Assembly (NCBI GenBank): GCA_977020255.1
Contig: CDROCS010003425.1
Span: 1-64,000, forward strand
Direction of reading: 5' to 3'
DNA: 64,000 bases
Origin: Obrimoposthia wandeli
Lineage: Eukaryota
Part shown: piece after piece, positions 1 to 33,029 of the stretch
Layout: each line of letters opens with the position of its first letter
How positions within the stretch are numbered: the stretch's first letter is position 1
Notes under the pieces: model-generated
Told to the model about the DNA's origin: nothing
The model's database searches: none
The model's input: the letters and a program-made list of their open reading frames with translations, nothing else
Translations under genes and position numbers: made by a program

Positions 1-2485
1 ATTCAGGACTGAGACGCCAGCAACATTTCAGCGTTATAATTCTGCACTCGCATCGTGTTAAACACGATGGTTTATATCGATGATACTTAATAATATTTTC
101 TAAAACAGTTCAGAAGAACATCTAAAAATCAAGTTATTTAAAGATTGGAAAATGCTAAGTAAACCTACAAAATGCGAATGGGCTAAGAGCGAAGTAACAT
201 TTTTTAAGGACATATAGTATCGAAAAGTGCATCGACCTGATCCAGCAAAGATCGAAAGTAAAAAGCGCATTTAGCACCAAAGACTGTTAAGGAAATACAA
301 ATTTTGGGTCTTGCGAACTATTATGGTGATTTGTTAAACATTTTTCAAGATATAGCAACCCATTGAAAAAGTTGACGAGGAAAGATGAGGAGGTTATATG
401 GGAAAGAAAGCACAACAAGCGTTCGAGCATTTAAAGAAAAGGCTTGATAAAAGCACCAACATTGGTTTCCCAAAATATGGCCGACAATTCCTTACTGATG
501 ACGGATGCAAGTAACTATGCTGTAGGAGCAGTATTGGGACAAGAGGATGACGAAGGAAGAGAACACGCCATCGCGTATGCGAGTAGAGGGTTAAACAGAG
601 CCGAAAGAGGATAATCTGTTTTTGTAAAGGAATGTCTAGCCATAGTATATTCATGTAGACAGTACAGACACTACTTGCTAGGACAAACAGTATTCTTGTA
701 TACAAATCACAAACCACTACAGTTCTTGTATAAACATAGAGACGAGATGAGTAGATTAAACAGATGGTTTCTGAAATTGGCCGAATTTGATCTAGAAGTC
801 CGTTATACAACCGGAAAGTCGAATGGCAACGCAGATTGTTTGTCGAGATTGATAAATGTAGACGAGAAAGGAAACATAATTCCAGAAGAAGGTCAAGATA
901 AAGGAGAAGCAAATCTACTAACGATTTTGCTGAAGACGGGTAAAATAGACAAAGAGATCATCAAGGAACAGAAGGAAGATGAAGAACTGAGTCTAATCAA
1001 AGAACTGTTAGTGAAAGGAGATCTAAACGATGAAATGACGAAAAAATACTCGATAAAAGAAGGAATCTTGTATATTGTCAACAATGTCGGAAAGATAGTA
1101 GAAGTAATTCCGAAGACATTGAAAACAGCAGTGATGATCCAGTACCACGATGGAACACTAGGAGGACATCTGTCAGGATGAAAGACAATAGCCAGAATCA
1201 AAGAGAAGTACCATTGGGATGGTATGGAAGATGACATAAAACAATGGTGTAAACAATGTAAAGTATGTTTAACCAGAAAAGACACCGGAACTCGTACTAA
1301 AGTTCCACTGAAACCGATGCCAGTTCCTTTGGCACCAATAGAATTCACAGCGATGGATATATTGGGACCATTGAGAGAATCAAGTAAAGGAAACAAGTAC
1401 GTCATAGTATTTACGGAGTATATGACGAGCATACCCATGCAAAACCAGAAGGCTGAGACAATAGCGCAGATCTTAGTCGAAGAGATAATATTTCGATACG
1501 GAGTGAGTAGGTGGATGTGTCCGGTCTAATCCACACCGCCTCCCCCCTTGTCCTTTAAAACCGTGCATGTGTGTGGAGTGAAATTTCGTGTAGGTGTGTG
1601 GAGTGAAATTTCACTCCACACACATACATTTTAAGACTGAAGGAAGGAGTCTGGAGCCGGACGGAGATGCCTAGAAAGTTATTAACGGATCAAGGCAAGA
1701 ACTTCACTGGAGAAGTAATAAAAGCAGTATCGAAGATATTCGGAATCATGAAGTTACAAACTTCACCATATCACCCACAAAACGATGGTCTAGTAGAGAG
1801 GTTTAATAAAACCTTATGTATGATGGTACAATCTTATTGCTCCGATAAGCAAGAGGATTGGAATAAGTATTTACCTTCATGTTTATATGCTTACAGGAAT
1901 TCAGTTCGAGAGGCGACGGGTCACACACTATTTTATCTGATGTATCTCAGACAAAACAATATGCCAATGGATCTGGAGTGGACCGAACCAACATCTCAGT
2001 ACCTAGAAACTGAACAATACATTGTCGTTATGAAGGAAAGACTACAAAATGCTTGGACTAAAGCAGGATTGAAATTGAAATTCAATCAAGAAGATTACAA
2101 GGAACAATATGACAAAAAGGCAAAACCACATGAATTTAGAGTTTGAGATCGACTGATGATATTTTACCCAGTCATCGAACCAGGTCTATCGTTTAAACTT
2201 CACAGACCATACAAAGGACCATACAAGGTGATACAGACAACCTCAACGAATTTGAAAGTAATCAACGAGGAGAACCGGAACAAGGAACCAATGATTGTAC
2301 ATGCGAATCGATGTAAACTGGTACCGAATAAAGATAATGCGTCACGATATGAGCTAAGATCACAGAAATTGAAGCTGAATACCAATACCATTAAACTTAC
2401 ACGAATGGTAAGTGATCGAAACTACATAAATACGATGACAAGTAGTAACGATGAAGACCAGCGAGAATTGGCATGCTCAGAATAA
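1..2485 (+). pseudogene. pol: Gypsy pol (RT end, RNase H, integrase), disrupted by stops, frameshifts and a 157 bp insertion
   Basis: RNase H reads FLLMTDASNYAVGAVLGQ...AIAYASR...KECLAIV...NHKPL. Integrase HHCC reads YHDGTLGGH...WCKQCKVC. DDE core reads AMDILGPL / TDQGKNF / GLVERFNKTL, followed by the GPY/F motif PYKGPYKVI. Confidence 0.95.
1506..1662. mobile_element. Mini (TIR-only) Polinton inserted in the Gypsy integrase
   Basis: Begins AGTAGGTGGATGTGTCCGGTCTAATCCACACC, the same as the Polinton end at 28529. The second half resembles a degraded opposite TIR. Flanks are GGAGTG (1500-1505) and GGAGATG (1663-1669). Removing it restores RYGVPRKLLTDQG. Confidence 0.85.
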
Positions 2486-4839
2486 AGCACCAAGAGGAAA
2501 AAGAAGTAATCCGACACTTCGCACCACAAGAGATATTAGAAGAAGACAAAGAGATCATAGTCGTTTTCGAAAGAACACAACCAACAGATGTGGCGAAAGA
2601 GGTCATTTTGAAAGATGCATTGACAAACGAATTTCTGTGCGAACTTAGAGTGTCATATTTCGATGGAAATACACTAGTCGCAGAACTACATCAAAACTCC
2701 AATGTGTTTACGACCGAGAAAGTGATAATATAAATCACATTGACACCAAACATAGTTGCATGGCAGAACTATGACAGTACGGAAGCAGGACTAGCCATTC
2801 AGGAAGAAAAAGAACCGGTCGGTGGTCATATACTTCATGGTACACCAAAAAGACTCAAACAGGAATACCATGATGTACTGGTATTACGCAATTCACAAGG
2901 GAAAAAAGATATAATGAGAGTTCATTTAATCAACGCCGAGACAAATAAGGTATTATGTCAGATGGTCACAAAATACTTTGATGGAAAGACCATTGTATGT
3001 AATATACCGGTATCTCACCAATTAAAAACAGATAAAACAGAAGTATCTGTAAGGTTGAGCGTAATAGAAGGATTCCATTCGCCAACCCAACCCGAAGTAA
3101 CAAACAATAAAATCGTTAAAGCAACGGCAGAGTTACGCATTAACAGCGGATACCGAAAGTGGGAAGCTAGAAATAAACCACAAAGAATCAATATGATCAG
3201 AAAACAAGCGAAAAACTCAATCCAGCCAAAATATCATGCTGAAATAGTATCATCCGCGCCAAGTGTGATTACATCAATAAACGACGAAATTATAATATTA
3301 CTAAAAAATCGATGGCCATCATCAACCGAGATACGAGTCAATTTAGTGAATTATGCGAAAACACCGATATCTAAGCTGAATGTCACCTATTTCGATGGAT
3401 TGTCCATCATGGGTAAATTGGAAACAATCGTCATGTGCTATCGAGCACAATTCCAAGTTGAGATACTTAAGGATAATGTAATACCGTATCTGATTCACAG
3501 AGACTCAGGACCAGTCAATCCAATTATTCTAACCCCTTCATTAATTTCAGTTCAAACATACATACCAGAACACCCTTTGAGCGAGTCTAGTCAAGACAGT
3601 GAACCTGAAAGCAGCGATCCAGAGTCAACAGAATCCGAAGATAACATAATAGAGCGATTCGGAAAAACCATGGAGGTTGAATTCGCTAAAGAGAGCAGAA
3701 AAAGACGAAACATAGACTTCGTGAAACATAATATACAAGAAAGACGAATTAAATCCGCAGAAGAGACCGAGTCGGAAGAGAAACTAACAAAGGAACAGAC
3801 ATCAGAGACAAAGATGAATATCTCTCCAGCAATACGAATGCTGAGAGGAAAGAAACTGGCGAAATTATTCATCATATATGAACAAATAGAGAAGCGATTA
3901 GAAAGATTAAAACTTGAGGAGTCAGAATTGATGCCACCAATGAGTGAGATAATTCCAGATATGTTATACCTCGGAAATGTGGAAGACGCATTAGACGAAA
4001 AGAAACTGTTGGAAAAAGGGATAACATATGTGATCAATGTTACAATGAATCACGAATCGCAATATCAGACAATCAGAGCTATGACATTAAGAGTGAAAGA
4101 CTCAATGGAGGCTAATCTTCTCGAATGGTTCGGAGAAACAAACGAGATAATTTACAAAGAACTCCAAAACCAAGGAAAAGTGTTGGTACATTGTCAGAAA
4201 GGAATCTCTAGATCAGCAACCTTGGTATTAGCATATCTAATAAAGAGTAGACGAATGCAGGTACTAGAAGCGCTGAAATATCTACAAGAAAGACGAAGTA
4301 TCGCGAACCCAAACCTTAATTTTTTGGGACAATTGTCAAATTACCAACTCCTGTTGCAAGAACGGAGACGGATGGATGACATCCCCGAGGATCCAAAGGA
4401 AAATAATTTCCTCCAATCACTATCGTTGACCGGATTATTCTTAGCAGGAGTCGACAAAATCACCCAGATAATGCCAAAAGTATTTCTATGTAACCCAGGA
4501 GATATAGATACTGCTGGTTTAAAGTTCCACAGTATAAACCGAGTAATTAACATTGTTGAAGTCGAAAACGAGATAATCAGTATATGTCAAAATACTGAAG
4601 ATGACACTACACGATACATACATGCTTCAAATCGGGAGATAAACGACGCACAACAACACCTGATGAAGTTGACTCAAACTATCCAAGCCGAAGTCACAGA
4701 AGGAAACGGCGTTCTGATATATCAGAAAAAAGGTACAATGTTAGCACCTACCATAGTCATACACCAGAAGAAGCGATGGTCTACATCAAACAGAATAGAC
4801 CAGATACGGAATTCAAACCGTTACTCGTTCGAGAAATAG
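2473..4839 (+). CDS. Cargo ORF: three YFDG-motif repeats, a dual-specificity protein phosphatase domain and a second degenerate phosphatase domain; one in-frame TAA at 2731
   Basis: ORFs 2473..2733 and 2740..4839 share a frame. The DSP domain reads SEIIPDMLYLGN...GITYVINVT...LRVKD...KVLVHCQKGISRSATLVLAYL...RSIANPNLNFLGQL. The second copy reads ITQIMPKVFLCN...INRVINIV...GVLIYQKKG and has no catalytic Cys. Confidence 0.9.
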
Positions 4840-5597
4840 AGAAATACTCCGAAAGAAGGAAGCAACAACGAGAAATGAATGAGGTTACAACAACAGTGCC
4901 CAGCTATCAGTACCAAAGATTGCTAGCACTGGGCTTGTTAAGTTGTCTAATGCCAACAACGGGAGCACAAGAGATAGGCTCCAACCACGGAAATAGTTCC
5001 TGGTTTAAAGAAATCAACAACTACATCATGCAGTACAATACACCAACACTGATGATGCTATAAGTGTTGATAGGACTGATCGATGTTTGGATAATCAGAA
5101 AATGTTTCCGATCTATAAGAACCGATAGAGAAAGATTCCAGTTTGTAAAAATGAAGAGACCAAACGGACCAACAACACAGGTACTTGTTTATCTAGACGA
5201 AAGGATCGAGGAGAACATAGTTAATGAAGTGATATATTATCCACAAAACAGACTACTGAATCAATTCCGAATGGACTACGAAGCTGACCGACAGTGCACA
5301 CTTGATAAAATATCAGCAACGTTCGCAGGATGCAGGCAAAGAAAACGAATTGTAAAGGAAATACAAAAATATGCGGATACAAAAGGTACGACGTATGTAT
5401 TCGACGGCGATATCATCAAAACACGTGAGTATGGAAGTAAGAGAGTGATAATCGAAACGATGGAAGGACATAAAACATGCTTGTCCGCCAAAAATGGATT
5501 CGGAAAGTTGGTGATACAAGGCAAAGTTGATTATCGGAAAAACCGGAATCGAAGAAATGTCAAAGTAACGACAGACAACCAAGACAAAACGACATAA
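4776..5597 (+). pseudogene. Probable continuation of the phosphatase ORF with hydrophobic segments (frameshift near 4765, TAA at 5061)
   Basis: This frame reads PEEAMVYIKQNRP, a DSP C-terminal motif. ORFs 4776..5063 and 5064..5597 share a frame. Hydrophobic stretches are LLALGLLSCLMPTTGA and LMML*VLIGLIDVWII. Confidence 0.55.
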
Positions 5598-5607
5598 TCA
5601 GAATCAG

Positions 5608-5988
5608 ATGTATCTCAAACGAATAATAATCAAAACTGTTTGCAAAAGGACAATCAAGGTCCTTTGCACTGTTGCACAAGGATTGATCTACGGAGTAGTA
5701 ATTGGATTGGTACTACAAGCCATTCCAACCGGTAAAGCTGAATTGATGACGCTAGCTGAATATAATCTACATTTGAGAAATCTAGACAACACTCTAGAAA
5801 TAATCAAGACGTCTCCCAGTAAAGCCGTGATGATCATATGTGTGAAAGGATGTCCAGAACGAGTATGTATAATACCAGAGACAGAAATGAAAACACTAAA
5901 TGGATATTATGAAGTTAGTGTTGTCACATGTGAAGGATACACATTTGGACAAACTAAAATAGTACTTCTCAGTGACATGTCCAACTAA
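5608..5988 (+). CDS. Hypothetical membrane/secreted protein (retroelement cargo)
   Basis: 126 aa ORF with a hydrophobic segment (GLIYGVVIGLVLQAI) and a Cys-containing tail. No family recognised. Confidence 0.5.
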   Translation: MYLKRIIIKTVCKRTIKVLCTVAQGLIYGVVIGLVLQAIPTGKAELMTLAEYNLHLRNLDNTLEIIKTSPSKAVMIICVKGCPERVCIIPETEMKTLNGYYEVSVVTCEGYTFGQTKIVLLSDMSN

Positions 5989-6060
5989 AGTACACATAAA
6001 TTTAAAATATTAACCATCAAAAGTAAAGGGATACAAGCAATACGTTACGGTATTCTAGAA

Positions 6061-7389
6061 TTGGTTAATCCAATACTGGCATTGATTATCGGAATCATAA
6101 TATTAATATTGCTCATCTTATTTTGTTGTACAAAGATCGAGTTGAAATCAAAAAAGAAACGTCACGATCTCGCAAGACGAACCGGTCAAATGAATTTACA
6201 AAAATTCGACACAACTATACCAAGACCAGCATTCCTAAATGAACCATCACCGGAGTATCAGCCAACGATATATAAACATATCGAGGAAAGACCGTACTAC
6301 ATGAGTAACTTGAGTTATCTCAGAGAAGTTCCTGAGATCCGGAACCGGACGATAATAGGAATCATGCTGATCATACAAATCACCACAACTGAGGCTGGTT
6401 ACAAGATCATGATCAGTAAATGGAGACAAGATACGATACGTGCGTTATATATAAAAATACCTCTACTAAAAACGAATCACATAGTAGAAATTCAACTACA
6501 AACATCCGCAACCGAAAATGTCGATCAGAAATTGTATGTCATCCGCCAGATTGAAATAAAGATTGACAAACATACACTTTACTACCGACTGATACTATTC
6601 TATTATGAAAAGGTATTATACCTACGAATAACAATATCAAAAAAGAAACGGATTATCCAAATTATCCGAACAAAGTCAGTAATATTGCCTAACGACGAGC
6701 GCATCTGGAAAGTTATTGACAGGTTTATGGTCACAGGTAAACGACGTAAAACTGTATGGAATTCTGTTAATTTATTCTTCAGATTGTTAGAAACTGGCCA
6801 GGTAACAGTGGCGTGTCCCAATCCCGATGACGGAATCAAATTCGCAATACAACCCCAAATGTTAGTACCGCATTATGATGCAGAATGTCTATGTAGCCGA
6901 ATTTCCAGTAATGCTAAAGAGACCTCTACCGTAATCATAGTAATAACAGGTGAAATATTCTATATAACTCTAAGATACCAGACACGTCGATTTTGTGGAC
7001 TAGGTATGAGCATCAAAACCAAGAAATTCAATTCTGGGAAACCAAACACAGTCATAAAGAAGGCAAAGGTGAAAGGAAAAGAGCTTGATTCCAGAAACCA
7101 AAGCACAATTATTGAGAGAACAAGAGTGAAGGGAACGATTCCACTGGATCTCAAATCTCGAATAATAATACCCGTTAGACAAAAAACAAAATATCCGAAT
7201 CCACGATTTATAAGAAAATCAGACATAATACACGGAAACCGAACAGCAGCAATTGAGACGTCACTCAAACCGACAAACAACAAAATAAAGTACGATTACC
7301 AATCCTCAGACAGCGGGATAACTGCAGTCAATGCTTTAATTGTAATGGCCGTAGTGTCAACTGCAGTAGTTCTATTGACAGTCGTGTAA
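6061..7389 (+). CDS. Hypothetical membrane protein in the env-like position
   Basis: 442 aa open frame with N-terminal (ILALIIGIIILILLILFCC), internal (TIIGIMLIIQI) and C-terminal (ALIVMAVVSTAVVLLTVV) hydrophobic helices. No fusion-protein motif recognised. Confidence 0.6.
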   Translation: MVNPILALIIGIIILILLILFCCTKIELKSKKKRHDLARRTGQMNLQKFDTTIPRPAFLNEPSPEYQPTIYKHIEERPYYMSNLSYLREVPEIRNRTIIGIMLIIQITTTEAGYKIMISKWRQDTIRALYIKIPLLKTNHIVEIQLQTSATENVDQKLYVIRQIEIKIDKHTLYYRLILFYYEKVLYLRITISKKKRIIQIIRTKSVILPNDERIWKVIDRFMVTGKRRKTVWNSVNLFFRLLETGQVTVACPNPDDGIKFAIQPQMLVPHYDAECLCSRISSNAKETSTVIIVITGEIFYITLRYQTRRFCGLGMSIKTKKFNSGKPNTVIKKAKVKGKELDSRNQSTIIERTRVKGTIPLDLKSRIIIPVRQKTKYPNPRFIRKSDIIHGNRTAAIETSLKPTNNKIKYDYQSSDSGITAVNALIVMAVVSTAVVLLTVV

Positions 7390-7639: not shown

Positions 7640-7938
7640 ATGTCCGAAGAATGTCCAATATGTTTGGAAGATATAACCGAACGAAGAACAAGACCCAATA
7701 CCTGCAACCATTTACACCACGAGGAATGTTTATCAAAATGTATCCGACTTATGGAGAATTCCTACATCCAACATACCCTCGTTGCCCTGTATGCAGAAGA
7801 CAATTTACAAAATTCATCATAATAGAACCCAACCAAGAGGATGTAGATGTACAAGTGGTATTCTGTTGGAAGAATTTGAGAGAGTGTTGGTGTTTTTTCT
7901 GTACATCAGAACGACAAGATCCGACCACTTTTGTGTAA
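7640..7938 (+). pseudogene. RING-H2 finger unit 1 (one frameshift)
   Basis: CPICLEDI...CNHLHHEECL in the 7640 frame, then CPVCRRQF...FCWKNLRECWCFFC in the 7651 frame. Confidence 0.8.
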
Positions 7939-7998
7939 ACATCACACAACAACCAACCCTCAATCGAGCCCAAATTCAACATCACCCATCTCACAGCA

Positions 7999-8304
7999 AT
8001 GTCTGGAGAATGTTCCATCTGCTACGGGAACATCGTGGACCTCTACACCAAACCCAACAACTACGAACACCAATTTCATGTCCAATGCCTCGAGACATGG
8101 ATCCCAGTTGTCAACAGCAACAAGCCCCTCGACTACCCAACCTGCCCGATGTGCAGGGCATCCTTCTCGGTACACTTCGTATACGACCGAGACAGTCTCC
8201 AAGCAGTGGTACCCATCGTACACTGCTGGAAGGACACCTGCGACTGCTGGTGTATGTTCTGCGTGGAGGAGCGACGCACAGACCAGCCCGACAGCCAGCA
8301 GTAA
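7999..8304 (+). CDS. RING-H2 finger unit 2
   Basis: CSICYG...YEHQFHVQCLETW...CPMCR followed by HCWKDTCDCWCMFC. One ligand Cys is replaced by Tyr. Confidence 0.8.
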   Translation: MSGECSICYGNIVDLYTKPNNYEHQFHVQCLETWIPVVNSNKPLDYPTCPMCRASFSVHFVYDRDSLQAVVPIVHCWKDTCDCWCMFCVEERRTDQPDSQQ

Positions 8305-8615: not shown

Positions 8616-8996
8616 GTGCAGATGATATGCTCGGTGTACCTCGACAGAGTTCGGGACTCCTCAGCAATCCCTGCCGGATGCCGTCACCGGTTCTACGAGG
8701 CGTTTCTCTATATGTGGGCTAAAGCTCGACCCGCCGGCTACATCACATGCCCGATGTGCCGAGCACCCTTCACCGAGTGGACGATCCAATGCCGTGGACG
8801 TTCAAAGGGCACCCGCTCACCTACCAGCTGTATTGGTGGCGAGTGGTGCCGATGCCCCATCTGCCCTGTGCGCCGTCGCGACGCGCAACGCAATATACGA
8901 GAGGTGTGGCAGTCTAGCCGTGACCACCACTCGTGGCAGTACGCTCGGCGAGTGTGGCTCCGCAACCATGAGCAGCACAGTTCCGGCGCCCCCTAA
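8616..8996 (+). CDS. Degenerate RING-H2 finger unit 3
   Basis: CSVYLD...CRHRFYEAFLYMW...CPMCR followed by SCIGGEWCRCPIC. Several ligands are substituted. Confidence 0.65.
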   Translation: MQMICSVYLDRVRDSSAIPAGCRHRFYEAFLYMWAKARPAGYITCPMCRAPFTEWTIQCRGRSKGTRSPTSCIGGEWCRCPICPVRRRDAQRNIREVWQSSRDHHSWQYARRVWLRNHEQHSSGAP

Positions 8997-10311
8997 TCCG
9001 CCAAAACCCGAATTTGAACATTTTCCAGCAGCTGGGGCTCTACCAGGGCGACACTTCAGTTTTCCCAACGTTGCCCTGTGAACGGGTTATGTTGTTCCTC
9101 GAGGAGCGGAACAGGCCAGTGCCCACTATCGACTTAACAATGGATGACTGATGGAACATTGACACCTTATCTTTCCTTCTCCTTTCCTTTTCTAAATTTC
9201 TCATCCACACATTTTTGTATAAATACACGTTGAATAACATTCGTGACATTGTCCGAACATTATTCAAAATACACGAGTTTTGTCAAACTAGTGGGTATGT
9301 TTGAAGCGTCATCGAATGTTTGAAATCAAGTGAGGATTTTTTCTAAAATCTGGGACTAGTGAATTAAAATCGATACGTTCCGAGGACGTAACTTTTTTGA
9401 AACCCCCGAGATATGTTAGGATTAGGTTTTGACTAAATTAAAATAATTAATCATTTTTATACTAAAATAAAAATCCTTGAAAGCAAGGTTATAATTAAGA
9501 TAAAATTAATTATAAAATTAAAATTATAAAAATAAAATCAGTGGGAAAATATTAGGACCAAAAAGGTCATGTGTAAGCGTGTGCTGTATATAAGGGATTT
9601 TAAACTTAACCAAAAGGCCCAAAAAAGAAGAAAGTGCAATTAACCAAAAAAGAAATTAGGAAGAAATATAAAGAAAAGAAATCCAAATCCATTAGGAAAG
9701 CCAGTCGCGGCACTTAACAATCTTTCTGCTACAACGGACTCGCTGGGAACCAAGCCAGCCGCCAGATCTCCTCAACTCCGCAACTTGTTTGGAGGTAAGA
9801 ATCACTTAGCTAAGTGATCTTAATTACTATTTCATTCCAGTCTAGACCCGTCGCATAAGGCCTCACGGAATCGCAGTCCAATAGAGAAGAGGACAATTCC
9901 CAGAAATCAATTAGCGTCGGGAACGAAATAGAAGGTAAACAGAAATCAATTAGCGTCGGGAACGAAATAGAAGGTAAAATCTTAATATAAAAGGAAAGTT
10001 AATTTTGATTTTCACAGAAGAAAAATTCCAGAAAACTTATAGAAATTGAGTGATTGAGAAGCAGATCACATCAGAAAAGTGAAGAAAGGTAATCAAATTT
10101 TAATTAGAGAAACTATTGTTCGACTCCCAGAAGTTAAACCGTATCGGAAGGACCAAGACTTACGGAGCTAACTGTATCAGAAGGACCAACAGACGTACGG
10201 AAACCAACCGTACCTGGAAGGAACGAACTACGCGAAGCATCGGACGAGGAGTTCATATCAGCAAACCCCAGTTGGATCAAGGTAAGCCGAGTCTGAATAA
10301 AAGTGAAATTG

Positions 10312-10975
10312 ATTGAATCGAGCTGAGTGAAGTTATCATTGTTAAATTGAATTGAGTTTTTTGAAGTTATCAATATTTAAATTGAATTGAGTAAAGTTAT
10401 CAATATCTAAATTGAACTGAGTGAAGTTATCATTATTTGAATCGAGCTGAGTGAAGTTATCATTGTTAAATTGAATTGAGTTTTTTAAAGTTATCAATAT
10501 TTAAATTGAATTGAGTAAAGTTATCATTATTTGAATCGAGCTGAGTGAAGTTATCATTATTTGAATCGAGCTGAGTGAAGTTATCATTATTAAATTGAAT
10601 TGAGTTTTTTGAAGTTATCAATATCTAAATTGAATTGAGTGAAGTTATCATTATTTGAATCGAGCTGAGTGAAGTTATCATTATTTGAATCGAGCTGAGT
10701 GAAGTTATCATTATTAAATTGAATTGAGTTTTTTGAAGTTATCAATATTTAAATTGAATTGAGTAAAGTTATCAATATCTAAATTGAACTGAGTGAAGTT
10801 ATCATTATTTGAATCGAGCTGAGTGAAGTTATCATTGTTAAATTGAATTGAGTTTTTTGAAGTTATCATTATTAAATTGAATTGAGTTTTTTGAAGTTAT
10901 CAATATCTAAATTGAATCGAGTAAAGTTATCAATATCTAAATTGAACTGAGTGAAGTTATCATTATTTAAATTGA
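10312..10975. repeat. Minisatellite inside the LTR (TTGAATCGAGCTGAGTGAAGTTATCA variants); second copy about 19131-19637
   Basis: Many 25-35 bp variant units. The array is about 160 bp shorter in copy 2. Confidence 0.9.
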
Positions 10976-11079
10976 ATAGTTGGAAGTTGGAGTTTAAAAG
11001 TCGTAACTGTAGAATTTGAATTAAAAAGGCTACGTTAAATTAAAAGGCTAAGTAAAATTACCTTGCTCTATTTTTTCAG

Positions 11080-11310
11080 TGCCCATATTTTTAGAGTGAG
11101 TACTTTATAAAATTAACAAACTTACATTGCCCATATTTTTAGAGTGAGTACTCTACATAAAATTAACAAACTTACATTCCCCATATTTTTAGAGTAAACA
11201 ACTCTACTAAAATCAACTAAAATTACATCGCCCATATTATTTAGAGTAAAGACTCTAGTAAAACCTACCATTTTAACCTTGTCACATTTTAGAGTAAAGA
11301 CTCTAGTAAC
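11080..11310. repeat. ~47 bp tandem repeat (GCCCATATTTTTAGAGTGAGTACTCTA...); second copy about 19740-19922
   Basis: 4-5 imperfect units, with one unit fewer in copy 2. Confidence 0.85.
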
Positions 11311-12099
11311 CAAACAACCCTAAAATAAAATCGATACGTGGATCATCCTCACTTGTGTAGAGACTTTGCAAAAGTCTTAGGAATTGTATTGTAATTTTAG
11401 AACGTAATTAGACGTGTTAATTTAGTGTGCTTAGTAATAAACGATTTCCTACAACTAGACAGCGTTGTTATAGACCCTTCAAATTTAAAAATAACAAACC
11501 TTCAGATAAGAATTGAGGCAGGCAAGCATAACATTAAGTAGGCCACAAACATCTACAAGTCCTGCTTCTATAGAACTCACGTTGGGGCCCTCTATTCAGA
11601 GGTTCTATATTAGAAAAACAGTTTCATATAGAAACTCCAACACAATTTATCATTTAAATATTTTAGTCTTGTTTCTTCTTCAGCAATAGTTTCATAATAT
11701 ATTTTAAATACTTTAACTGTATGCTTTTGTATTTCCAAAAACAATCTTCTTTTTGTGTCATAGGCAATTGCATAATTCATTTCATGATAGCATGTTTCTT
11801 GAGTGGCTTCAAAGACAAAGAAAACATAATGGTTATAAATTTAAAAAATATTATTTTTCATTTAACATTTATGTTGATTAAAAGAGTCTTCATATGTTTC
11901 ATTCATGTTACATTCATGAATATATTGTGCTGAATATTCTTTTCAACAATCTTCACATTTTTTAAATTGGAGCCTTGATTGAAAAGTTCCATCTTGATAT
12001 GAATGTTGAATTTGAAATGATTGTAAACACTTATGACCATATTTTCTTCATTTTAAAAATATAAGAATTTTTGAAATGGCATTAAAAGTAGTTATTTTT

Positions 12100-12460
12100 A
12101 TTAGGGTGGCCCTTAGTATAATGTGAAAAAATTAAAATCAACAACTTCACTCTGCCACCCTCCAAATATATGACAATAATAGAGACAACCCTCTGTGCAA
12201 AAAATATTACATTCAATATTCATTCATACAAGAAGATTGATTATCAAATTTGATTATTGAAATACTAATTATGCAATATGCAATACATTTGTGATTTAGT
12301 ATTAATTGGGACATAGCTAATGTTATGAATAAATTCCAAATTAGCAATGAACTGCATAATGTACATAATCTTTTGCACAGTATGTTTTTTCATAGATAGT
12401 ATAGATTGATGGGATGGCAGAAATTGAATTCAAACTTTCATTTTTAAGGGCCATCTTAAT
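12100..12460. mobile_element. MITE-like element (copy at 20711-21071)
   Basis: Imperfect terminal inverted repeats ATTAGGGTGGCCCTTA ... TAAGGGCCATCTTAAT, plus internal CTGCCA/TGGCAG complementarity. Confidence 0.5.
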
Positions 12461-13569
12461 TTTCATAGTAAAGAAATGTTTGTTTGATGTAATAGAATCA
12501 TTGTTATTTTGGGAATAAATTATGATTCTTACTTGTTTTCAAAAAAGTTTCAAAAAGTTTTCAAATATTTTTACATCATCCATATTATTGCCTTCTGGTT
12601 TGCTTTCTACATTGGCCTTATTGTGTAAGTGACAAGCCCATTCTTGTTGAATTGAATATCTTCTAATATATCTTATTCTATTATCATTATATTTTTATGA
12701 ATGATTATTTTCTTATTATTTTTATCAAAGTTAAAATAATTTGTATTAGAATTGTTGTCATAAGTTATTGATGTTATTATGGCTCTAGCCATACAAATTG
12801 AATATAGATTAAATATCATTTTGACAGAATTAGAAGCAATTTTTTTAAATTCTAAATTTGTAGATTGTGAACTTCCATTAGCTCTATTTTCTACTACAAT
12901 GAATAAGATTAATTCAAAATTCAAAAGTAATATTTTCAAGAGTTTATTAGTCAGCAGATTGCATTAATCTTTCTAAAGTAATTGATCTATAACATTTGCT
13001 TTAGAAGTCTTTGGAAATGAAGCATGTGTGAATTATATGATGAAGGGGAGTTAATTTTACTCTATAATTATCATTACCATTTGTTATATAGTCAGGAATA
13101 AAGTTTAAACACATACGAGTATTATTTTCAGTACTATGGTAAGGTTTTATTTTATATTGAAAAACGGTGCCTTGGTGGTTTCTATAATAGTGTGAGTTTA
13201 AATAGGTTATTTCATTTATTTCATCAATTTGAGTGGTTGGATCATAATTAGTATTAAATAAATTTTCGTCAAAAATATGTTCTTGGAATGGTAAAATAGA
13301 ATCTATTGCTTGCCATTCAAAATAATTTATATTTTGCTCCCTGACAATTTGTTGAGGGAAGTGAGCATTATTTGTATGATTCGTATTATTTAATTTTTAA
13401 AAAGTAAAATAATTTTTTTAGAGTAATATAATGAATTTACCATTTTTTCGGAAAATTGAAAATTTGGTATTTTTGAGAATATTTGACATTTTAGTCCACA
13501 CAATAAGTACCGTGTTTATCACCACTTTTTCAAAATATTTTCCTAACCTAAAAAAACGCTCCCTCCAGT

Positions 13570-15099
13570 TTACAACAACGTTGACCTAGACGAATAGATG
13601 GATGTGCAGCTGATTGGAGATCTCTCTCCAGTACTTTGGCGGAGTCAACAAGGAGACGGACGAGGAAGAGTAGTAATATCGAGACGTGCATCAAACGCAC
13701 GTGGAGGTTGATCTCGTTGTGTCAGCCGGAGACAATTGTCGCTCCAGACTCTGATGAGGACCTCTTTTGTGCATTAGTGCAGTTTAAGAAAATCAACGAG
13801 GAACTTAAAACTTTGGTATTTTCACATAAAGCGACTGTTTTCTACGATAATTTTATAAGTTAGATTGAAAGAAATTTAGATGAAAAAATTGCTAAATGTA
13901 GTGAGTTAAGTAGTGGATGAACTCTAGTCAGAATTCATGATGTTAGCTTTGTTTTCGGGAGACCATATATTCCTTCACCTAAATATATTCAACTCTCACG
14001 TTATATTGTTAGCATACAAAACAGTGATAACCTTTGCTTTCTGTATAGTGTGTTGGCCATACTCAAAAGGGATGTAATTACTGAGTACAAAGAGCGTGTC
14101 AGTAAATATATCCCTTTTTTAAATGAATTGCAGTATCATGGAATATATTTTCTTTTAAATTAACTGCAATATCAAAATTTGAACACATGAATAACTTAAG
14201 TATTAATGTATTCAAATATAATACTGATATCCCAGTTAATATAATAGAGGAAGAAATGTTTAAAAATCCTTTCGTAGATTTAATTTATAGGAGCAAAAAG
14301 GAGAGGACTTCAGTTAACTTAATTTTGCTTGAACGTACTAATAAATTCCACTATGTTGATATTCCCAATTTAGATCGTCTTCTAAATTTAGATAATAAAG
14401 CCTTACTAGTTAGGATAAGGTGCAAGTTTTGTCATAAATGCTAACATGAATTCCTATCCGAGATCTCTTATAGCAAACATTTGACATTATGTACATTGAA
14501 TCCTGGTGATAAGGATATAAAATTCAGGGATTTGGCAAAATGCATATCCGTCGAATTCAGGGTGTATGATGAGTGTAGCAATGATCATGACTGGCATAGA
14601 TGGGGTTAATTTTAATTCTAGTGGATCTTGTTATTTGTGTGGTACCCAGTCTAAGTTAGAAATGATTCAGCATTTTTAGATGAATATGGAAATGAAGTAA
14701 ATGTTGATGCGTTTTCGAAAGAGAAACTTTGAATTGTAACAATTCAACTTTATGGTTACAAGAAGGATGAAATTGGAACAAAAATTAAAATTAATTTTTG
14801 TCTTATATTTTTTTTCTCTTAAAAATATATAATTTTGACCTACGTATTTTTGTCCTCCTAACATGCATAAAAATGTAGTCATTTATTAATACAAAATTCG
14901 CATCTAAAATCTCATCTACGATAAATCGATTCTGAGGGGGTCAATATGGATTCATGTGGTCTTTTATAAACACTTCTAATAACTTAAATTCATCCTTGGA
15001 TGTCGGATGTGAAATTAATACACACATGTAGGAAATTTCACTCCATACACACATGTACGGTTTTAAAGAGGGTCTATTAAAACGAACGATCCACCTAGT
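13570..15099 (+). mobile_element. Internally deleted relic of the Polinton family
   Basis: Colinear pieces match 29570-30030 (PETIVAPDSDEDLF), 34630-35480 (SHKATVFYDNF, NNLSINVFKYNTDIP), about 35700-35780, 42500-42620 and the right subterminal region/TIR (GAAATTTCACTCCA...ATCCACCTAGT). Confidence 0.9.
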
Positions 15100-16089
15100 C
15101 ATGTACTAGCACTTTTCTTTAATTTAAATATGATTCTGATGACTTTGTTTAAATTTTTTGGCTTTCGATTTAATTGATAAAATAGAATTTAAAATGAGCT
15201 CAAAAGTTAAATCGTAAATGCTTTATAAACTTGTAAAACATATTCAATTTAAAATAAACCTAAAGAAAGAAAAAAGAAAGCTCAACACCATGTTTGAAGA
15301 TCCTTAAATAATTTTCTTAAAAGGAACATGAATTATTTTGAAAATAAAAAGAATCAGCTGTTACATTTAATTTCTAACATCAGAAAACAACAGATCTGGT
15401 AAATCTGCTGATTTTGTCAAACCTCATTATTTTCACCTTCTTCTGTCATTCTCTGAATTCGAGTTTATTTGTTTCTGAAGAAAATTGGCTTTTTGAATTA
15501 TATTTGCATAGATTTATTTATATCAATAAACAGTGGCTTTAAATATAGATTCCGAGTTTTAAAATTCAATTACTTTTTCTATTATCTAAAAATATCAAAT
15601 GAAATAAAAAATAACAAAGTTATCTTTATGAATGCCTCTTTATCCCAAACTGCATCTGAACGTAGATGAACATTTTCCGTTAATTTTGTTACTCTTATGC
15701 GGGAAAATCTTTCTAATAAGCTGCTTGAAATTCCGTTTTTTAATCTTCATAAACATCTTATTTAGGGGAACCCCCGGAAAATCCCTTGGATTCCAATATG
15801 GATATATTATGGGCATGGTGGCTTTCTTCCTGTGAGATTTTCGATCTACATATTGTACCACTAAGGCCACACCACACTCGAACTTTTTCCGAATAAAGGG
15901 ATTTTTTAAACAACAATTTAACTGGTGTCTGTAATCAAGAGAAAAATATCTATCATCTACCAAGTTAAGTTCTTTTAATACTCTTTCTGAAAACATACAT
16001 TTACTTTGATGATCATAATTAATCGAATATGTGCACCTTTAGTTTCTTTTCTGTATATTAAGTACAAACTGTATGTGTGGCTTAATGAC

Positions 16090-16770
16090 AATAATAAGTA
16101 TGATTTATTACTGAAGAGTGCTTTCTTTTTTCCAGGGTAGATATTATTATTGTTACAGTTTCTCATATTCATTGGTAGATAATTGAAAAGATTGTTGCAT
16201 ACATTTCCAATATTCCATCACTCTGTTTGTTATTTGTGAATTCAATTCTGGCATTTAACGGTAGCCAAAAGAGCTTCATTAAATGCTCATTTGTCCTAGC
16301 AATTTTCTTTAATTTGAATATAATTCTGACGGCTTTGTTTAATATTTTTTCCCAAGAGATTTAATTTATAAGTTGAAATATTAAACAGAATATAATTTAT
16401 AAAATAAATATTGTTGATATGTCTGTTGCATGTTTTTATCGTTTTATTAATTTGATAATTCATTGAAATTATTTTTATCGAAGATGCAACCATTGTTCTT
16501 CATTTTCTTTTTTAATTAATAACATTTTTCCTGACACGTATGAAACTTCTTAGGGCTTATATTATTCTTAAATCCAAATATTATATACTCAGTTTTATTC
16601 TTATCCATCTTCAAATGTCTTGATTTCGTCCATATAGCTAGTTGACTCCTACGAAATGTAATTTCATATTCATTAGAATTCAAACCAAAATAAAGTTGTG
16701 TGTCATTAGCATAAAGATGGAAACGAATATTATTTTTCTTAATATTTGCTACGATTGACAAGTATAAAAT
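16090..16770 (-). pseudogene. CR1/L2-type LINE reverse transcriptase 3' fragment (copy about 24700-25380)
   Basis: IRFHLYANDTQLYF (YADD motif), LKMDKNKTEYIIFG and the C-terminal NLFNYLPMNMRNC...KKKALF. Confidence 0.75.
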
Positions 16771-17230
16771 AATTACACTCAGTTACATTTAAATATTTAA
16801 AAATCAAATAATTTCAATAATTTAGTCGTGTAATTTCTGAGACGAAACAGAATGTTCAAGGTTGAATAGTAAAAGTTAAGCTCGATGATTGAAAACCCTG
16901 CTATACCTCAAGCAAATAATGATCAAAAACAAGAACAATTTTAAGACATAACAAGACATAGCAAACTGCAATAAACCAAACGACCTTGTCACCACTGGCC
17001 CATTTGTGCAGCAATGGGTAAAGATTTCTATCCTCTCCTGTTTGTACTATGTTGTTGACGAATAGATCTTCATGGAATATATTCTTTGAACTTTAATTAC
17101 ATCAAACTACTTCTTTACAATATGTCAAATAAAATTCAAATTGTGTATTTCAAAATATAAAAAGACTTTTAAAATTAAGCTCACTAGAAATATTTTTCAA
17201 AATTTAAAACAACGAAGATTTAATGCAGTG

Positions 17231-17400
17231 TTTCAACACGACGGAGCATCAACTCATTTTGAAAAATCGATAGAAACTTCAAGAACATAGAATTTATCTT
17301 AAGATGGTTGGGCAGCGAGGTCTTCAGACGTCACTATTGGATTTCTTTGTTTGGGAACTTCTTAAAAACAATTATTTTAAAGAAACTCTAAAACTATTCA
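17231..17400 (+). pseudogene. Tc1/mariner transposase fragment (copy about 25838-26007)
   Basis: FQHDGASTHF ... RWLG ... LDFFVWELLKN, matching FQQDGAPPH...LDFFLWGYLK. Confidence 0.7.
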
Positions 17401-18231
17401 AAAGTTGGCAGTATCAGCGAATATTCAATCCTAGCTATAAATGGCTGGGTAACTTACTGAAACAATGCCGTATCAGGAATTGTGGATTGCAATTTTTCCA
17501 CATGAACGAGGAATCCCTAGTAAGTGCGAGCCATTAGAATGTACACACCACCCGTCGCTTCTACCGCTACAACCGTCGTTTTCATCATAAGCACGTCTAA
17601 TTATAAATGACAGTTAATCGTCGGTTTAGACCCATGACGCCGGTTTTTACACCATTGATCAACATCATAACTAGAGTGTCCCAGGATTTTGGGGTGTCAA
17701 CAGCTAATTCTCGCAATAAATAGCAGAATTAGAAAAAAAATTAAAATGGAACTTTGTGTTGCACTTATTAAAAGCTACGCTGACTTTACTTACATACTGT
17801 ATATATATGCAAAACTCGTGACGTATAGTTCTTCAAGAAGATGACTAAGGTGGGGCTCTACCAGGGCGACACTTCAGTTTTCCCAACGTTGCCCTGTGAA
17901 CGGGTTATGTTGTTCCTCGAGGAGCGGAACAGGCCAGTGCCCACTATCGACTTAACAATGGATGACTGATGGAACATTGACACCTTATCTTTCCTTCTCT
18001 TTTCTTTTTCTAAATTTCTCATCCACACATTTTTGTATAAATACACGTTGAATAACATTCGTGACATTGTCCGAACATTATTCAAAATACACGAGTTTTG
18101 TCAAACTAGTGGGTATGTTTGAAGCGTCATCGAATGTTTGAAATCAAGTGGGGATTTTTTCTAAAATCTGGGACTAGTGAATTAAAATCGATACGTTCCG
18201 AGGACGTAACTTTTTTGAAACCCCCGAGATA

Positions 18232-20065
18232 TGTTAGGATTAGGTTTTGACTAAATTAAAATAATTAATCATTTTTTTACTAAAATAAAAATCCTTGAAA
18301 GCAAGGTTATAATTAAGATAAAATTAATTATAAAATTAAAATTATAAAAATAAAACCAGTGGGAAAATATTAGGACCAAAAAGGTCATGTGTAAGCGTGT
18401 GCTGTATATAAGGGATTTTAAACTTAACCAAAAGGCCCAAAAAAGAAGAAAGTGCAATTAACCAAAAAAGAAATTAGGAAGAAATATAAAGAAAAGAAAT
18501 CCAAATCCATTAGGAAAGCCAGTCGCTGCACTTAACAATCTTTCTGCTACAACGGACTCGCTGGGAACCAAGCCAGCCGCCAGATCTCCTCAACTCCGCA
18601 ACTTGTTTGGAGGTAAGAATCACTTAGCTAAGTGATCTTAATTACTATTTCATTCCAGTCTAGACCCGTCGCATAAGGCCTCACGGAATCGCAGTCCAAT
18701 AGAGAAGAGGACAATTCCCAGAAATCAATTAGCGTCGGGAACGAAATAGAAGGTAAACAGAAATCAATTAGCGTCGGGAACGAAATAGAAGGTAAAATCT
18801 TAATATAAAAGGAAAGTTAATTTTGATTTTCACAGAAGAAAAATTCCAGAAAACTTATAGAAATTGAGTGATTGAGAAGCAGATCACATCAGAAAAGTGA
18901 AGAAAGGTAATCAAATTTTAATTAGAGAAACTATTGTTCGACTCCCAGAAGTTAAACCGTATCGGAAGGACCAAGACTTACGGAGCTAACTGTATCAGAA
19001 GGACCAACAGACGTACGGAAACCAACCGTACCTGGAAGGAACGAACTACGCGAAGCATCGGACGAGGAGTTCATATCAGCAAACCCCAGTTGGATCAAGG
19101 TAAGCCGAGTCTGAATAAAAGTGAAATTGATTGAATCGAGCTGAGTGAAGTTATCATTGTTAAATTGAATTGAGTTTTTTGAAGTTATCAATATTTAAAT
19201 TGAATTGAGTAAAGTTATCAATATCTAAATTGAACTGAGTGAAGTTATCATTATTTGAATCGAGCTGAGTGAAGTTATCATTGTTAAATTGAATTGAGTT
19301 TTTTAAAGTTATCAATATCTAAATTGAATTGAGTGAAGTTATCATTATTTGAATCGAGCTGAGTGAAGTTATCATTATTTGAATCGAGCTGAGTGAAGTT
19401 ATCATTATTAAATTGAATTGAGTTTTTTGAAGTTATCAATATTTAAATTGAATTGAGTAAAGTTATCAATATCTAAATTGAACTGAGTGAAGTTATCATT
19501 ATTTGAATCGAGCTGAGTGAAGTTATCATTGTTAAATTGAATTGAGTTTTTTGAAGTTATCAATATCTAAATTGAATCGAGTAAAGTTATCAATATCTAA
19601 ATTGAACTGAGTGAAGTTATCATTATTTAAATTGAATAGTTGGAAGTTGGAGTTTAAAAGTCGTAACTGTAGAATTTGAATTAAAAAGGCTACGTTAAAT
19701 TAAAAGGCTAAGTAAAATTACCTTGCCCTATTTTTTCAGTGCCCATATTTTTAGAGTGAGTACTCTATAAAATTAACAAACTTACATTGCCCATATTTTT
19801 AGAGTGAGTACTCTACATAAAATTAACAAACTTACATTCCCCATATTTTTAGAGTAAACAACTCTACTAAAATCAACTAAAATTACATCGCCCATATTAT
19901 TTAGAGTAAAGACTCTAGTAACCAAACAACCCTAAAATAAAATCGATACGTGTATCATCCTCACTTGTGTAGAGACTTTGCAAAAGTCTTAGGAATTGTA
20001 TTGTAATTTTAGAACGTAATTAGACGTGTTAATTTAGTGTGCTTAGTAATAAACGATTTCCTACA
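18232..20065 (+). repeat. Duplicated copy of the probable LTR (1834 bp)
   Basis: Same termini and same downstream flank as 9414-11453, with shorter internal arrays. Confidence 0.65.
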
Positions 20066-22180
20066 ACTAGACAGCGTTGTTATAGACCCTTCAAATTTAA
20101 AAATAACAAACCTTCAGATAAGAATTGAGGCAGGCAAGCATAACATTAAGTAGGCCACAAACATCTACAAGTCCTGCTTCTATAGAACTCACGTTGGGGC
20201 CCTCTATTCAGAGGTTCTATATTAGAAAAACAGTTTCATATAGAAACTCCAACACAATTTATCATTTAAATATTTTAGTCTTGTTTCTTCTTCAGCAATA
20301 GTTTCATAATATATTTTAAATACTTTAACTGTATGCTTTTGTATTTCCAAAAACAATCTTCTTTTTGTGTCATAGGCAATTGCATAATTCATTTCATGAT
20401 AGCATGTTTCTTGAGTGGCTTCAAAGACAAAGAAAACATAATGGTTATAAATTTAAAAAATATTATTTTTCATTTAACATTTATGTTGATTAAAAGAGTC
20501 TTCATATGTTTCATTCATGTTACATTCATGAATATATTGTGCTGAATATTCTTTTCAACAATCTTCACATTTTTTAAATTGGAGCCTTGATTGAAAAGTT
20601 CCATCTTGATATGAATGTTGAATTTGAAATGATTGTAAACACTTATGACCATATTTTCTTCATTTTAAAAATATAAGAATTTTTGAAATGGCATTAAAGT
20701 AGTTATTTTTATTAGGGTGGCCCTTAGTATAATGTGAAAAAATTAAAATCAACAACTTCACTCTGCCACCCTCCAAATATATGACAATAATAGAGACAAC
20801 CCTCTGTGCAAAAAATATTACATTCAATATTCATTCATACAAGAAGATTGATTATCAAATTTGATTATTGAAATACTAATTATGCAATATGCAATACATT
20901 TGTGATTTAGTATTAATTGGGACATAGCTAATGTTATGAATAAATTCCAAATTAGCAATGAACTGCATAATGTACATAATCTTTTGCACAGTATGTTTTT
21001 TCATAGATAGTATAGATTGATGGGATGGCAGAAATTGAATTCAAACTTTCATTTTTAAGGGCCATCTTAATTTTCATAGTAAAGAAATGTTTGTTTGATG
21101 TAATAGAATCATTGTTATTTTGGGAATAAATTATGATTCTTACTTGTTTTCAAAAAAGTTTCAAAAAGTTTTCAAATATTTTTACATCATCCATATTATT
21201 GCCTTCTGGTTTGCTTTCTACATTGGCCTTATTGTGTAAGTGACAAGCCCATTCTTGTTGAATTGAATATCTTCTAATATATCTTATTCTATTATCATTA
21301 TATTTTTATGAATGATTATTTTCTTATTATTTTTATCAAAGTTAAAATAATTTGTATTAGAATTGTTGTCATAAGTTATTGATGTTATTATGGCTCTAGC
21401 CATACAAATTGAATATAGATTAAATATCATTTTGACAGAATTAGAAGCAATTTTTTTAAATTCTAAATTTGTAGATTGTGAACTTCCATTAGCTCTATTT
21501 TCTACTACAATGAATAAGATTAATTCAAAATTCAAAAGTAATATTTTCAAGAGTTTATTAGTCAGCAGATTGCATTAATCTTTCTAAAGTAATTGATCTA
21601 TAACATTTGCTTTAGAAGTCTTTGGAAATGAAGCATGTGTGAATTATATGATGAAGGGGAGTTAATTTTACTCTATAATTATCATTACCATTTGTTATAT
21701 AGTCAGGAATAAAGTTTAAACACATACGAGTATTATTTTCAGTACTATGGTAAGGTTTTATTTTATATTGAAAAACGGTGCCTTGGTGGTTTCTATAATA
21801 GTGTGAGTTTAAATAGGTTATTTCATTTATTTCATCAATTTGAGTGGTTGGATCATAATTAGTATTAAATAAATTTTCGTCAAAAATATGTTCTTGGAAT
21901 GGTAAAATAGAATCTATTGCTTGCCATTCAAAATAATTTATATTTTGCTCCCTGACAATTTGTTGAGGGAAGTGAGCATTATTTGTATGATTCGTATTAT
22001 TTAATTTTTAAAAAGTAAAATAATTTTTTTAGAGTAATATAATGAATTTACCATTTTTTCGGAAAATTGAAAATTTGGTATTTTTGAGAATATTTGACAT
22101 TTTAGTCCACACAATAAGTACCGTGTTTATCACCACTTTTTCAAAATATTTTCCTAACCTAAAAAAACGCTCCCTCCAGT

Positions 22181-33017: not shown

Positions 33018-33029
33018 ACAATTCTTCTA

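Follow-up and report, generated by a model that had tools for sequence, protein, structure and literature searches.

A dual-specificity phosphatase domain behind the integrase of a decayed Ty3/Gypsy retroelement

Phosphatases and IkB mimics are familiar as viral genes: poxviruses encode VH1, baculoviruses a PTP, and polydnaviruses PTPs as well as vankyrins. Retroelements with host-regulatory cargo are known as well. For Burro (GYPSM1) of planarians, gag, env (envelope) and pol are reported to be joined in frame, together with BIR, BCL2-like, MATH, ankyrin and RING-type domains (PMC6431247). Similarly, the GAG-ENV-POL errantiviruses, which have an env of the gB type, have Platyhelminthes, Bryozoa and Nematoda as their hosts, and their gene order is reported to have arisen in several lineages (PMC13524379). 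Here, we describe the 3' part of a broken Ty3/Gypsy element in which a dual-specificity phosphatase (DSP) domain follows the integrase. It lies at the start of a stretch of 64,000 nucleotides from Obrimoposthia wandeli (assembly GCA_977020255.1, contig CDROCS010003425.1, positions 1 to 64,000, forward strand), which we call the window. The system resembles the viral ones in combining phosphatase, ankyrin and RING cargo in a virus-like genome, although the viral examples come from large DNA viruses. For elements of this kind, host-regulatory cargo is already known; the phosphatase appears to be the new part. Full-text literature searches, with most subscription papers, Repbase reports and bioRxiv supplements outside their scope, gave no paper on a phosphatase in a long terminal repeat (LTR) element, and the word 'phosphatase' has no occurrence in the main text of PMC6431247, PMC13524379 or PMC5408684.

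The phosphatase is encoded by an intronless frame of 701 codons that is open from stop to stop (2734-4839, forward strand). A preliminary description of this DNA had treated 2473-4839 as a single open frame: the larger part is open as described, whereas 2473-2730 is split off by an in-frame stop at 2731-2733. Residues 411-538 of the 701-aa frame match Pfam DSPc with 125.2 bits (E 1.9e-36; cut-off 33.5 bits), and all the catalytic motifs are present: VKD (4093-4101), HCQKGISRS (4189-4215) and NPNLNFLGQL (4306-4335), which had been taken to indicate a complete DSP domain and are found at the expected coordinates, as well as AYLI (4231-4242). The domain comprises 137 residues and is intact in sequence, and in the alignment with its best match in the PDB the Asp of VKD is paired with the Asp of the general-acid loop of DUSP10. 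The HCxxGxxR signature, given as the defining DUSP feature in PMC6600418, and the general-acid Asp within a DSPc domain place the protein among the dual-specificity (VH1-like) enzymes. By sequence, the domain is a real dual-specificity phosphatase.

Its closest structural relatives are phosphatases of mitogen-activated protein kinases (MAPK). A search of the PDB returned 59 sequences at E <= 1e-10, headed by DUSP10 (E 6.5e-26) and followed by DUSP4, DUSP1, DUSP16 and DUSP2; vaccinia VH1 and DUSP11 were absent from these 59. The missing VH1 makes the domain look like a separate capture. With the catalytic domain of DUSP10 it shares about 40% identity (57 identities, counted in the printed alignment), and over the full domain the identity to named DUSPs stays below 40% at best. 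In a phage collection the only match was a giant-virus DSP (Mollivirus, 32% identity). Thus, the domain resembles DUSP10/MKP5, DUSP1, 4, 16 and VHR in its signature, its general acid and its identity to DUSP10, but it differs from both MAPK phosphatases and atypical DUSPs in that three TIG-like repeats take the place of the rhodanese/MAPK-binding domain, in that a pseudo-phosphatase follows in tandem, and in that it is encoded by a retroelement. Pfam detects no rhodanese/MAPK-binding domain in the frame at E <= 1. The N-terminal rhodanese-like domain with a kinase-interaction motif that marks the DUSP-MKPs is therefore not present, and by the definitions in PMC6600418 the protein is a VH1-like DUSP of atypical layout rather than an MKP. 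The acidic linker ahead of the domain contains three loose matches to a MAPK-docking-type pattern; this pattern was picked after the sequence had been viewed, and 28 of 2000 shuffled sequences contain as many. Among 8000 scored candidates of 385-1227 aa, the 701-aa frame had 15 matches, all of them generic DSP proteins that cover 9-32% of it, and a single-sequence fold of the frame reached a pLDDT (predicted local distance difference test) of 30.

Composition and position both tie the phosphatase to the element. The order of reverse transcriptase (RT), RNase H and integrase ahead of it is that of Ty3/Gypsy, and this pol is 41-55% identical to those of intact relatives. The proportion of A is 0.40 in the DSP frame and 0.39 in pol, and the frequencies of A/T at third positions are 0.45/0.18 and 0.41/0.21, respectively, as compared to 0.35/0.38 in nine ankyrin exons of a host gene. 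Moreover, the A-rich strand bias is continuous from pol to about 8000 and is interrupted only at a small insertion. The base and third-position figures agree with the earlier statement of an intronless frame whose A content equals that of pol, unlike the intron-rich host gene. A pol-like composition combined with complete motifs at only about 40% identity to DUSP10 suggests that the DSP has been resident for a long time under selection. The idea of a long-resident part of the element is further borne out by a repeat that is common to the tail of a relative and by cargo that relatives carry at the same position. We consider it very likely that the phosphatase is element-borne.

The relatives were collected with the RNase H-integrase region as query, in which stops were read as X (best 120 of 169 listed), and in a second search with one of the relatives among proteins of 1063-3385 aa (best 120 of 4165 listed). 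In a tree of 31 rows, consisting of the window and 30 of 232 proteins chosen by score with a few outgroups, the pol of the window nests on a long branch in a clade of 20 rows (support 100/98), and a quick tree of 58 rows gave the same clade. Seven of the 19 relatives in this clade are single proteins of 2,627-3,181 aa with a Monjiviricetes-type fusion glycoprotein (PF24664) before protease and RT; the records of the other 12 begin at or after the protease. The window pol is thereby grouped with elements that have env before protease-RT, as do the GAG-ENV-POL errantiviruses with a gB-type env. P0151, in the subgroup nearest to the window (82/88), contains two of four short motifs from the Schmidtea env fragments in the supplement of PMC13524379. 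Among 15 other proteins, four have one motif and 11 have none, and single matches mean little, as a bee element has one. Two Gypsy pol proteins in the collection (P0017 and P0149) are labelled as Turicibacter and as a Flavobacteriaceae metagenome-assembled genome, respectively; they are probably eukaryotic DNA in bacterial bins.

The relatives also show what may stand behind the integrase. Its end could be located in 17 clade members, and all 17 read on for 144-1370 residues in the same open reading frame (ORF); 14 of these tails have signal-like or transmembrane (TM) hydrophobic segments. Their content varies: there are extra aspartic-protease domains, ankyrins (P0018, P0137) and, for the sister rows P0160 and P0162, immunoglobulin (Ig) domains. 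The three TIG/IPT-like repeats that precede the phosphatase, of about 90 residues each, are related to one another, with pairwise scores of 102, 58 and 49 that none of 1000 shuffles reached; two of them lie in the first 290 codons of the 2734-4839 frame and one in the stretch before its opening stop. A profile of the three matched the tail of P0137 with 17.9 bits (E 5.5e-5 among the 232 proteins and 232 reversed decoys), whereas the next real protein scored 4.3 bits and the best decoy 3.4 bits. In P0137 this repeat is in frame with the integrase, and behind it come an acidic linker and ankyrin repeats; in P0018 the ankyrins are present and the repeat is missing. BCAP-type adaptors and NF-kB p105, in its C-terminal half, are likewise built in the order unit, linker, ankyrins. 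The best PDB match of the P0137 ankyrins is BCL-3 (E 2.5e-6), and IkB-alpha is among the 14 listed. The repeat common to the P0137 tail links the cargo to the lineage of the element and shows, at the level of sequence, that effectors are exchanged in the post-integrase slot. Like the locus described here, P0137 has a tail with a TIG-like unit and an acidic linker, and then a signal peptide, beta-rich units and a TM segment; unlike it, P0137 has one repeat rather than three, and in both P0137 and P0018 ankyrins and extra aspartic-protease domains occupy the place of the DSP and the pseudo-DSP.

Some of these tails deserve mention in their own right. P0137 and P0018, both intact Pol polyproteins, carry extra aspartic-protease domains as well as BCL3/IkB-like ankyrins behind the integrase, and these ankyrins are a possible NF-kB-inhibitor mimic in a retroelement. 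The tails of P0160, P0162, P0023, P0024, P0025, P0033, P0144 and P0145 have the shape of type I membrane proteins, i.e. a signal peptide, a TM segment and a cytoplasmic tail, with an Ig domain or repeated beta-rich units of about 90 residues between signal peptide and TM segment; possibly they act as decoy receptors. The unit of about 90 residues is repeated 12 times in eight relatives' tails, and it looks fibronectin-III-like by eye, a name that no family match supports. Profiles of it gave at most 3 bits on the window, while a reversed decoy reached 9 bits.

The comparison with Burro reveals both common ground and differences. As in the Burro elements (PMC6431247), the intact members of the clade have an in-frame gag-env-pol and an env related to mononegavirus glycoproteins, and there are ankyrin and RING-type domains as host-regulatory cargo, tandem repeats within long LTRs, and decaying copies. 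However, Burro elements exceed 30 kb, their ORF1 has 4,900-5,100 aa and its BIR, BCL2-like, MATH and dUTPase domains lie mostly before or inside pol (PMC6431247), whereas the complete proteins of the clade have 2,627-3,181 aa (in a search range up to 3,385 aa) and their cargo lies after the integrase. No BIR, BCL2-like or MATH domain was detected by Pfam in the 3' 11.4 kb of the element. With the GAG-ENV-POL errantiviruses (PMC13524379), the gene order of seven clade members is in common, the env of the window's own element being out of view; the words 'phosphatase', 'ankyrin', 'fibronectin' and 'immunoglobulin' are absent from the main text of that report, and cargo behind the integrase is undescribed there.

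The preliminary description had also claimed a second DSP that lacks the catalytic Cys. A profile built from eight DSP domains of named organisms scores this region with 20.6 bits, which none of 500 shuffles reached (maximum 6.0), and YQKKGTMLA (4720-4746), with neither Cys nor Arg, occupies the place of the catalytic motif. The claim holds by this test, but the similarity is weak, truncated and lost by about 4760: only profile positions 3-107 of 150 are spanned, Pfam DSPc stays below its cut-off (17.4 bits, E 0.0039), and the PDB gave no match at E <= 10. In a direct comparison of the two copies, 53 of 1000 shuffles scored as high as the real pair, which is not significant. The final 26 codons of the 2734-4839 frame are probably out of frame. 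A frame-3 stretch past 4760 was considered as the missing end of this DSP, as it resembles the C-terminal helices by eye, and was rejected since 57 of 500 shuffles scored equally. Judged by its sequence, the second copy is a true, highly diverged DSP paralogue that is broken here, and the extent of its divergence suggests that the catalytic residues may have been lost before the element decayed.

The element copy itself is dead and decayed. There are ten breaks across 444-7389 (6.95 kb): six are stops (612, 1179, 2144, 2731, 5061, 5986), three are frame changes (near 2470, 4760 and 5590), and one is an insertion near 1506. The insertion belongs to a small repeat family with internal units of 25 nt that is also found elsewhere in the window (1506-1655, 28528-28629, 43505-43600, 15019-15068 and 23630-23679): 1506-1599 matches 43505-43600 at 97%, and 1505-1602 matches 28528-28629 at 92%. 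The longest unbroken stretch (2029 nt) contains the DSP; given ten uniformly placed breaks in 6.95 kb, this has a probability of 0.34, and an unbroken domain of 411 nt one of 0.54 at the same break density. The coordinates of the features of the element are given in the table below.

Features of the decayed Ty3/Gypsy element and the evidence for each
Position	Strand	Feature	Evidence
1..2485	+	Broken Gypsy pol: RT end, RNase H, integrase (H2C2, core, C-terminal domain)	Pfam RT_RNaseH, Integrase_H2C2, rve, Integrase_p58_C
1506..1655	.	Small repeat in integrase core, resembling a miniature inverted-repeat transposable element; right end approximate	Repeat matches; gap in integrase homology from about 1505 to about 1670
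2485..2730	+	TIG/IPT-like repeat 1, then in-frame stop 2731-2733	Repeat test; matches P0137 tail
2797..3087	+	TIG/IPT-like repeat 2	Repeat test; Atlas TIG clusters; weak fold matches
3223..3510	+	TIG/IPT-like repeat 3	Repeat test
3580..3939	+	Acidic Ser/Glu-rich linker with basic patches and a helix ahead of the DSP	Sequence
3940..4350	+	Dual-specificity phosphatase domain, full catalytic motifs	Pfam DSPc; best PDB match DUSP10, E 6.5e-26; motif coordinates
4453..4758	+	Degenerate second DSP without catalytic Cys and Arg, cut by frame change near 4760	Profile score; Pfam DSPc below cut-off
4761..5594	+	Membrane module 1, frame 3: signal-peptide-like 4920-4952, TM-like 5046-5096 (stop 5061-5063), about 160 polar residues	Hydropathy
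5569..7389	+	Membrane modules 2 and 3, frame 1; stop 5986-5988	Hydropathy
within 5569..7389	+	Module 2: signal-like 5680-5727, TM 6061-6138, tyrosine-rich tail	Hydropathy
within 5569..7389	+	Module 3: signal-like 6349-6384, beta-rich region, terminal TM 7324-7383	Hydropathy
7640..7941	+	RING-finger gene 1, broken by frame change near 7790	Both pieces match gene 2, scores 80 and 119, 0/500 shuffles each
7999..8304	+	RING-finger gene 2, RING and C-terminal Cys cluster	Pfam RING families with E 1e-4 to 4e-3, close to or under their cut-offs; PDB RING-H2 weak, E 0.11-0.9
8622..8996	+	RING-finger gene 3, degenerate	Matches gene 2, score 91, 0/500 shuffles; Pfam zf-RING_2 E 0.015
9414..11453	+	Probable 3' LTR, 2.04 kb, internal tandem arrays	TG...CA ends, imperfect inverted repeat

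Behind the two phosphatase copies, hydropathy reveals six hydrophobic segments, in which a pair of a signal-like and a TM segment occurs three times. For module 1, Pfam, NCBIfam and the relatives' proteins gave no convincing family match, and the 466-aa membrane frame matched nothing in the Atlas or NCBIfam. The membrane frames were considered as env and rejected, since Pfam finds no fusion-protein family in them and env lies upstream in the relatives of the clade. Past the TM segment of module 2, at 6240-6330, there is a Tyr/Pro-rich region with a TxYxxI pattern, which we take to resemble an inhibitory receptor motif. The third positions of RING genes 2 and 3 are C-rich (0.53 and 0.43), in contrast to the A-richness of their paralogue, gene 1, and of the remaining element; genes 2 and 3 may have been gained recently or be under a different expression regime. 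An origin of the RING genes from a Polinton was rejected because their matches to one another are far stronger than those to a RING-like frame at 33346; a codon test separated the groups poorly.

The LTR-like unit contains arrays of period 39, 30/124 and 50 as well as TATA-like and AATAAA motifs. No primer-binding TGG follows it and its flanks do not match, and both observations are in line with a 3' LTR. No purine tract was seen ahead of it; at the place where one is expected, just before the start of the LTR, there is a run of C (9385-9413). The LTR copy near 18232 was rejected as 5' LTR because it belongs to a tandem duplication that includes the downstream flank: 9030-17852 and 17848-26459 are arranged head to tail and 98.6% identical, and cover the LTR and 6.4 kb downstream. 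This may be a segmental duplication or an assembly artefact. Both of its copies contain a fragment (13765-14572) with 79% identity to a Polinton region (34628-35504). Rfam has no match within 1-27000.

How might the phosphatase serve the element? On balance, we lean towards the view that the DSP served as an accessory module in a large Ty3/Gypsy element of the env type with a gag-env-pol layout and that it antagonized host signalling. The active ancestor would have had one long frame in which the integrase was succeeded by three TIG-like repeats, then a linker, the DSP and the pseudo-DSP, and finally three modules with a signal peptide and a TM segment. This polyprotein might be cut by the protease of the element and by host signal peptidase, so that a cytosolic piece with repeats, DSP and pseudo-DSP would be released. 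The repeats, together with the dead domain as a binder of the substrate, could then bring this piece to a host signalling complex, where the phosphatase would dephosphorylate a protein of a stress or immune pathway; a MAPK-type protein is the first candidate. The membrane modules and the RING ligases may be further accessory factors. For the fusion of the cargo to Pol the sequences of the relatives make a rather good case, and we regard it as probable; an action of the phosphatase on host signalling is only slightly favoured, and its use against MAPK or immune pathways, which the preliminary description had proposed, is plausible.

Several results weigh against this interpretation. The DSP is known from one broken copy, so that its recurrence is not demonstrable: neither the 19 clade members nor any other of the 232 Gypsy pol proteins has a DSP motif or similarity, and Pfam detected no DSP in the 27 proteins scanned with it. 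The membrane modules have no homology to the tails of the relatives. The P0137 ankyrins match MIB1, Notch and IkB-alpha nearly as well as BCL-3. A single LTR-like unit in the window is assigned to the element, and the element's 5' LTR, gag and env lie outside the window, upstream of base 1. As to the repeats, the nearest clusters of 2734-3600 in the Atlas are TIG/IPT (0.91-0.92), but with a recognition of 1559 against a benchmark of 2300. Their model has a pLDDT of 43.6, its top match (Z 4.6) is an unrelated efflux protein, and among 48,161 chains none reached a Z of at least 5, nor did Foldseek return a match at E <= 0.001. Plexin A2 residues 563-643 (Z 4.5, root-mean-square deviation 3.1, 73 aligned) and the DBB domain of BCAP (Z 3.8, root-mean-square deviation 3.4, 72 aligned) are found with unrelated rows at equal Z. 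With the repeat profiles, the PDB gave artefacts or matches at E > 1 only, and Pfam nothing meaningful. A search of 1.84 billion representatives with the 402-aa N-terminal part had no match at E <= 0.001, but it was too insensitive, as it missed the unit in P0137. The TIG label for the repeats is a weak lead rather than an assignment. Finally, the missing MAPK-binding domain also counts here.

The last point fits an element-borne DSP that serves the element's own particle: fused behind the integrase, it would be packaged with Pol and would act on Gag, integrase or another protein of the element at assembly or entry, or on a non-protein phosphate such as the 5' end of an RNA. Vaccinia VH1 is indeed a virion enzyme that is required for the function of the particle. 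Atypical DUSPs are diverse in their substrates, which include triphosphorylated RNA for DUSP11 (PMC6600418). However, the core cycle does not need the enzyme, since all the other 232 Gypsy pol proteins lack it, relatives have ankyrin or Ig modules in the same slot, and the PDB matches are led by MAPK phosphatases with DUSP11 not among them; we consider a role in the particle rather unlikely. A further alternative retains the host-directed function but assumes a separate cargo ORF, expressed by re-initiation, a programmed frame change or a spliced RNA. The preliminary description had indeed placed the DSP in a free-standing ORF after pol, and the junction of the integrase spacer with repeat 1 is a clean one: an ATG of the cargo frame (2473) lies 10 nt ahead of the stop that ends the pol frame (2483-2485), which counts against a fusion to Pol. 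Moreover, the accessory domains of Burro occur as ORFs of their own or within the polyprotein (PMC6431247). Yet all 17 clade members measured are in frame past the integrase, the P0137 repeat is in frame with its integrase, and with several other frame changes in this copy one at this place is to be expected. The relatives thus suggest a module of a Pol-fused polyprotein, and although the ATG continues to fit a separate ORF, we hold the latter to be improbable.

It is also conceivable that the DSP came from a processed transcript of a host DUSP, or from unrelated DNA, that inserted into or beside the element and never served it, with the LTR at 9414 being foreign. The DSP occurs in no relative, no 5' LTR is in view, no purine tract precedes the LTR, and the third positions of RING genes 2 and 3 are C-rich, unlike pol. 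But the DSP is in frame with the repeat common to the Pol tail of a relative, the A-rich strand bias runs on from pol to about 8000 with third positions like those of pol and not like those of the host ankyrin exons, and an identity to named DUSPs below 40% is not that of a fresh retrocopy, even if the database may lack the DUSPs of the host itself. Such an insertion is very improbable. The idea that the host domesticated the DSP frame from the dead element and expresses it as a gene has even less to recommend it: the position of the DSP within the longest unbroken stretch is what ten breaks would often produce by chance, both for the stretch and for the domain, and breaks at 2731 and near 4760 interrupt the frame at either end. 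Domestication was rejected, as nothing points to a frame preserved beyond the surrounding decay.

The remainder of the window, in which the G+C content outside mobile elements is 25-35%, contains further genes. The host gene at 54759-56900 (reverse strand) has one ankyrin repeat per exon with a spacing of 135-145 nt, which implies introns of about 40 nt, and ends in a C3HC4 RING (Pfam E 2.3e-7). The G+C content and the short introns would fit a flatworm host. A Polinton/Maverick-like element (29500-42700) contains pieces of a protein-primed DNA polymerase B (35863-37786), a chromodomain integrase (38825-39925, reverse strand), an A32-type ATPase (40595-41146, reverse strand) and a TBP-like frame (41398-41778, reverse strand; Pfam TBP E 7e-12), and this TBP-like gene may be cargo of the Polinton.

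The captured domains of the giant gag-env-pol Gypsy elements are already suspected of altering host apoptosis and ubiquitination. A phosphatase would add the direct control of phospho-signalling, a strategy with precedents among large DNA viruses. The copy described here is dead and single, and there is no sign of its use by the host. It is tempting to speculate, as a tentative and doubtful extension, that there is an env-bearing, infectious Gypsy lineage, probably of flatworms, with a swappable slot for signal antagonists behind the integrase. This slot would hold a Rel-/BCAP-type TIG targeting unit and IkB-like ankyrins in one member and, in the element of the window, a triplicated TIG, an active phosphatase and a substrate-binding pseudo-phosphatase, followed by membrane decoys and RING ligases. 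If this is true, such a lineage would carry, inside a retrotransposon, a kit like that of poxviruses or polydnaviruses that silences signalling of the NF-kB/MAPK type. The variable tail behind the integrase, with its ankyrin, Ig, TIG-like, phosphatase and membrane modules, serves as a readout of the host pathways that restrain such elements, and this in animals whose antiviral signalling is poorly mapped.

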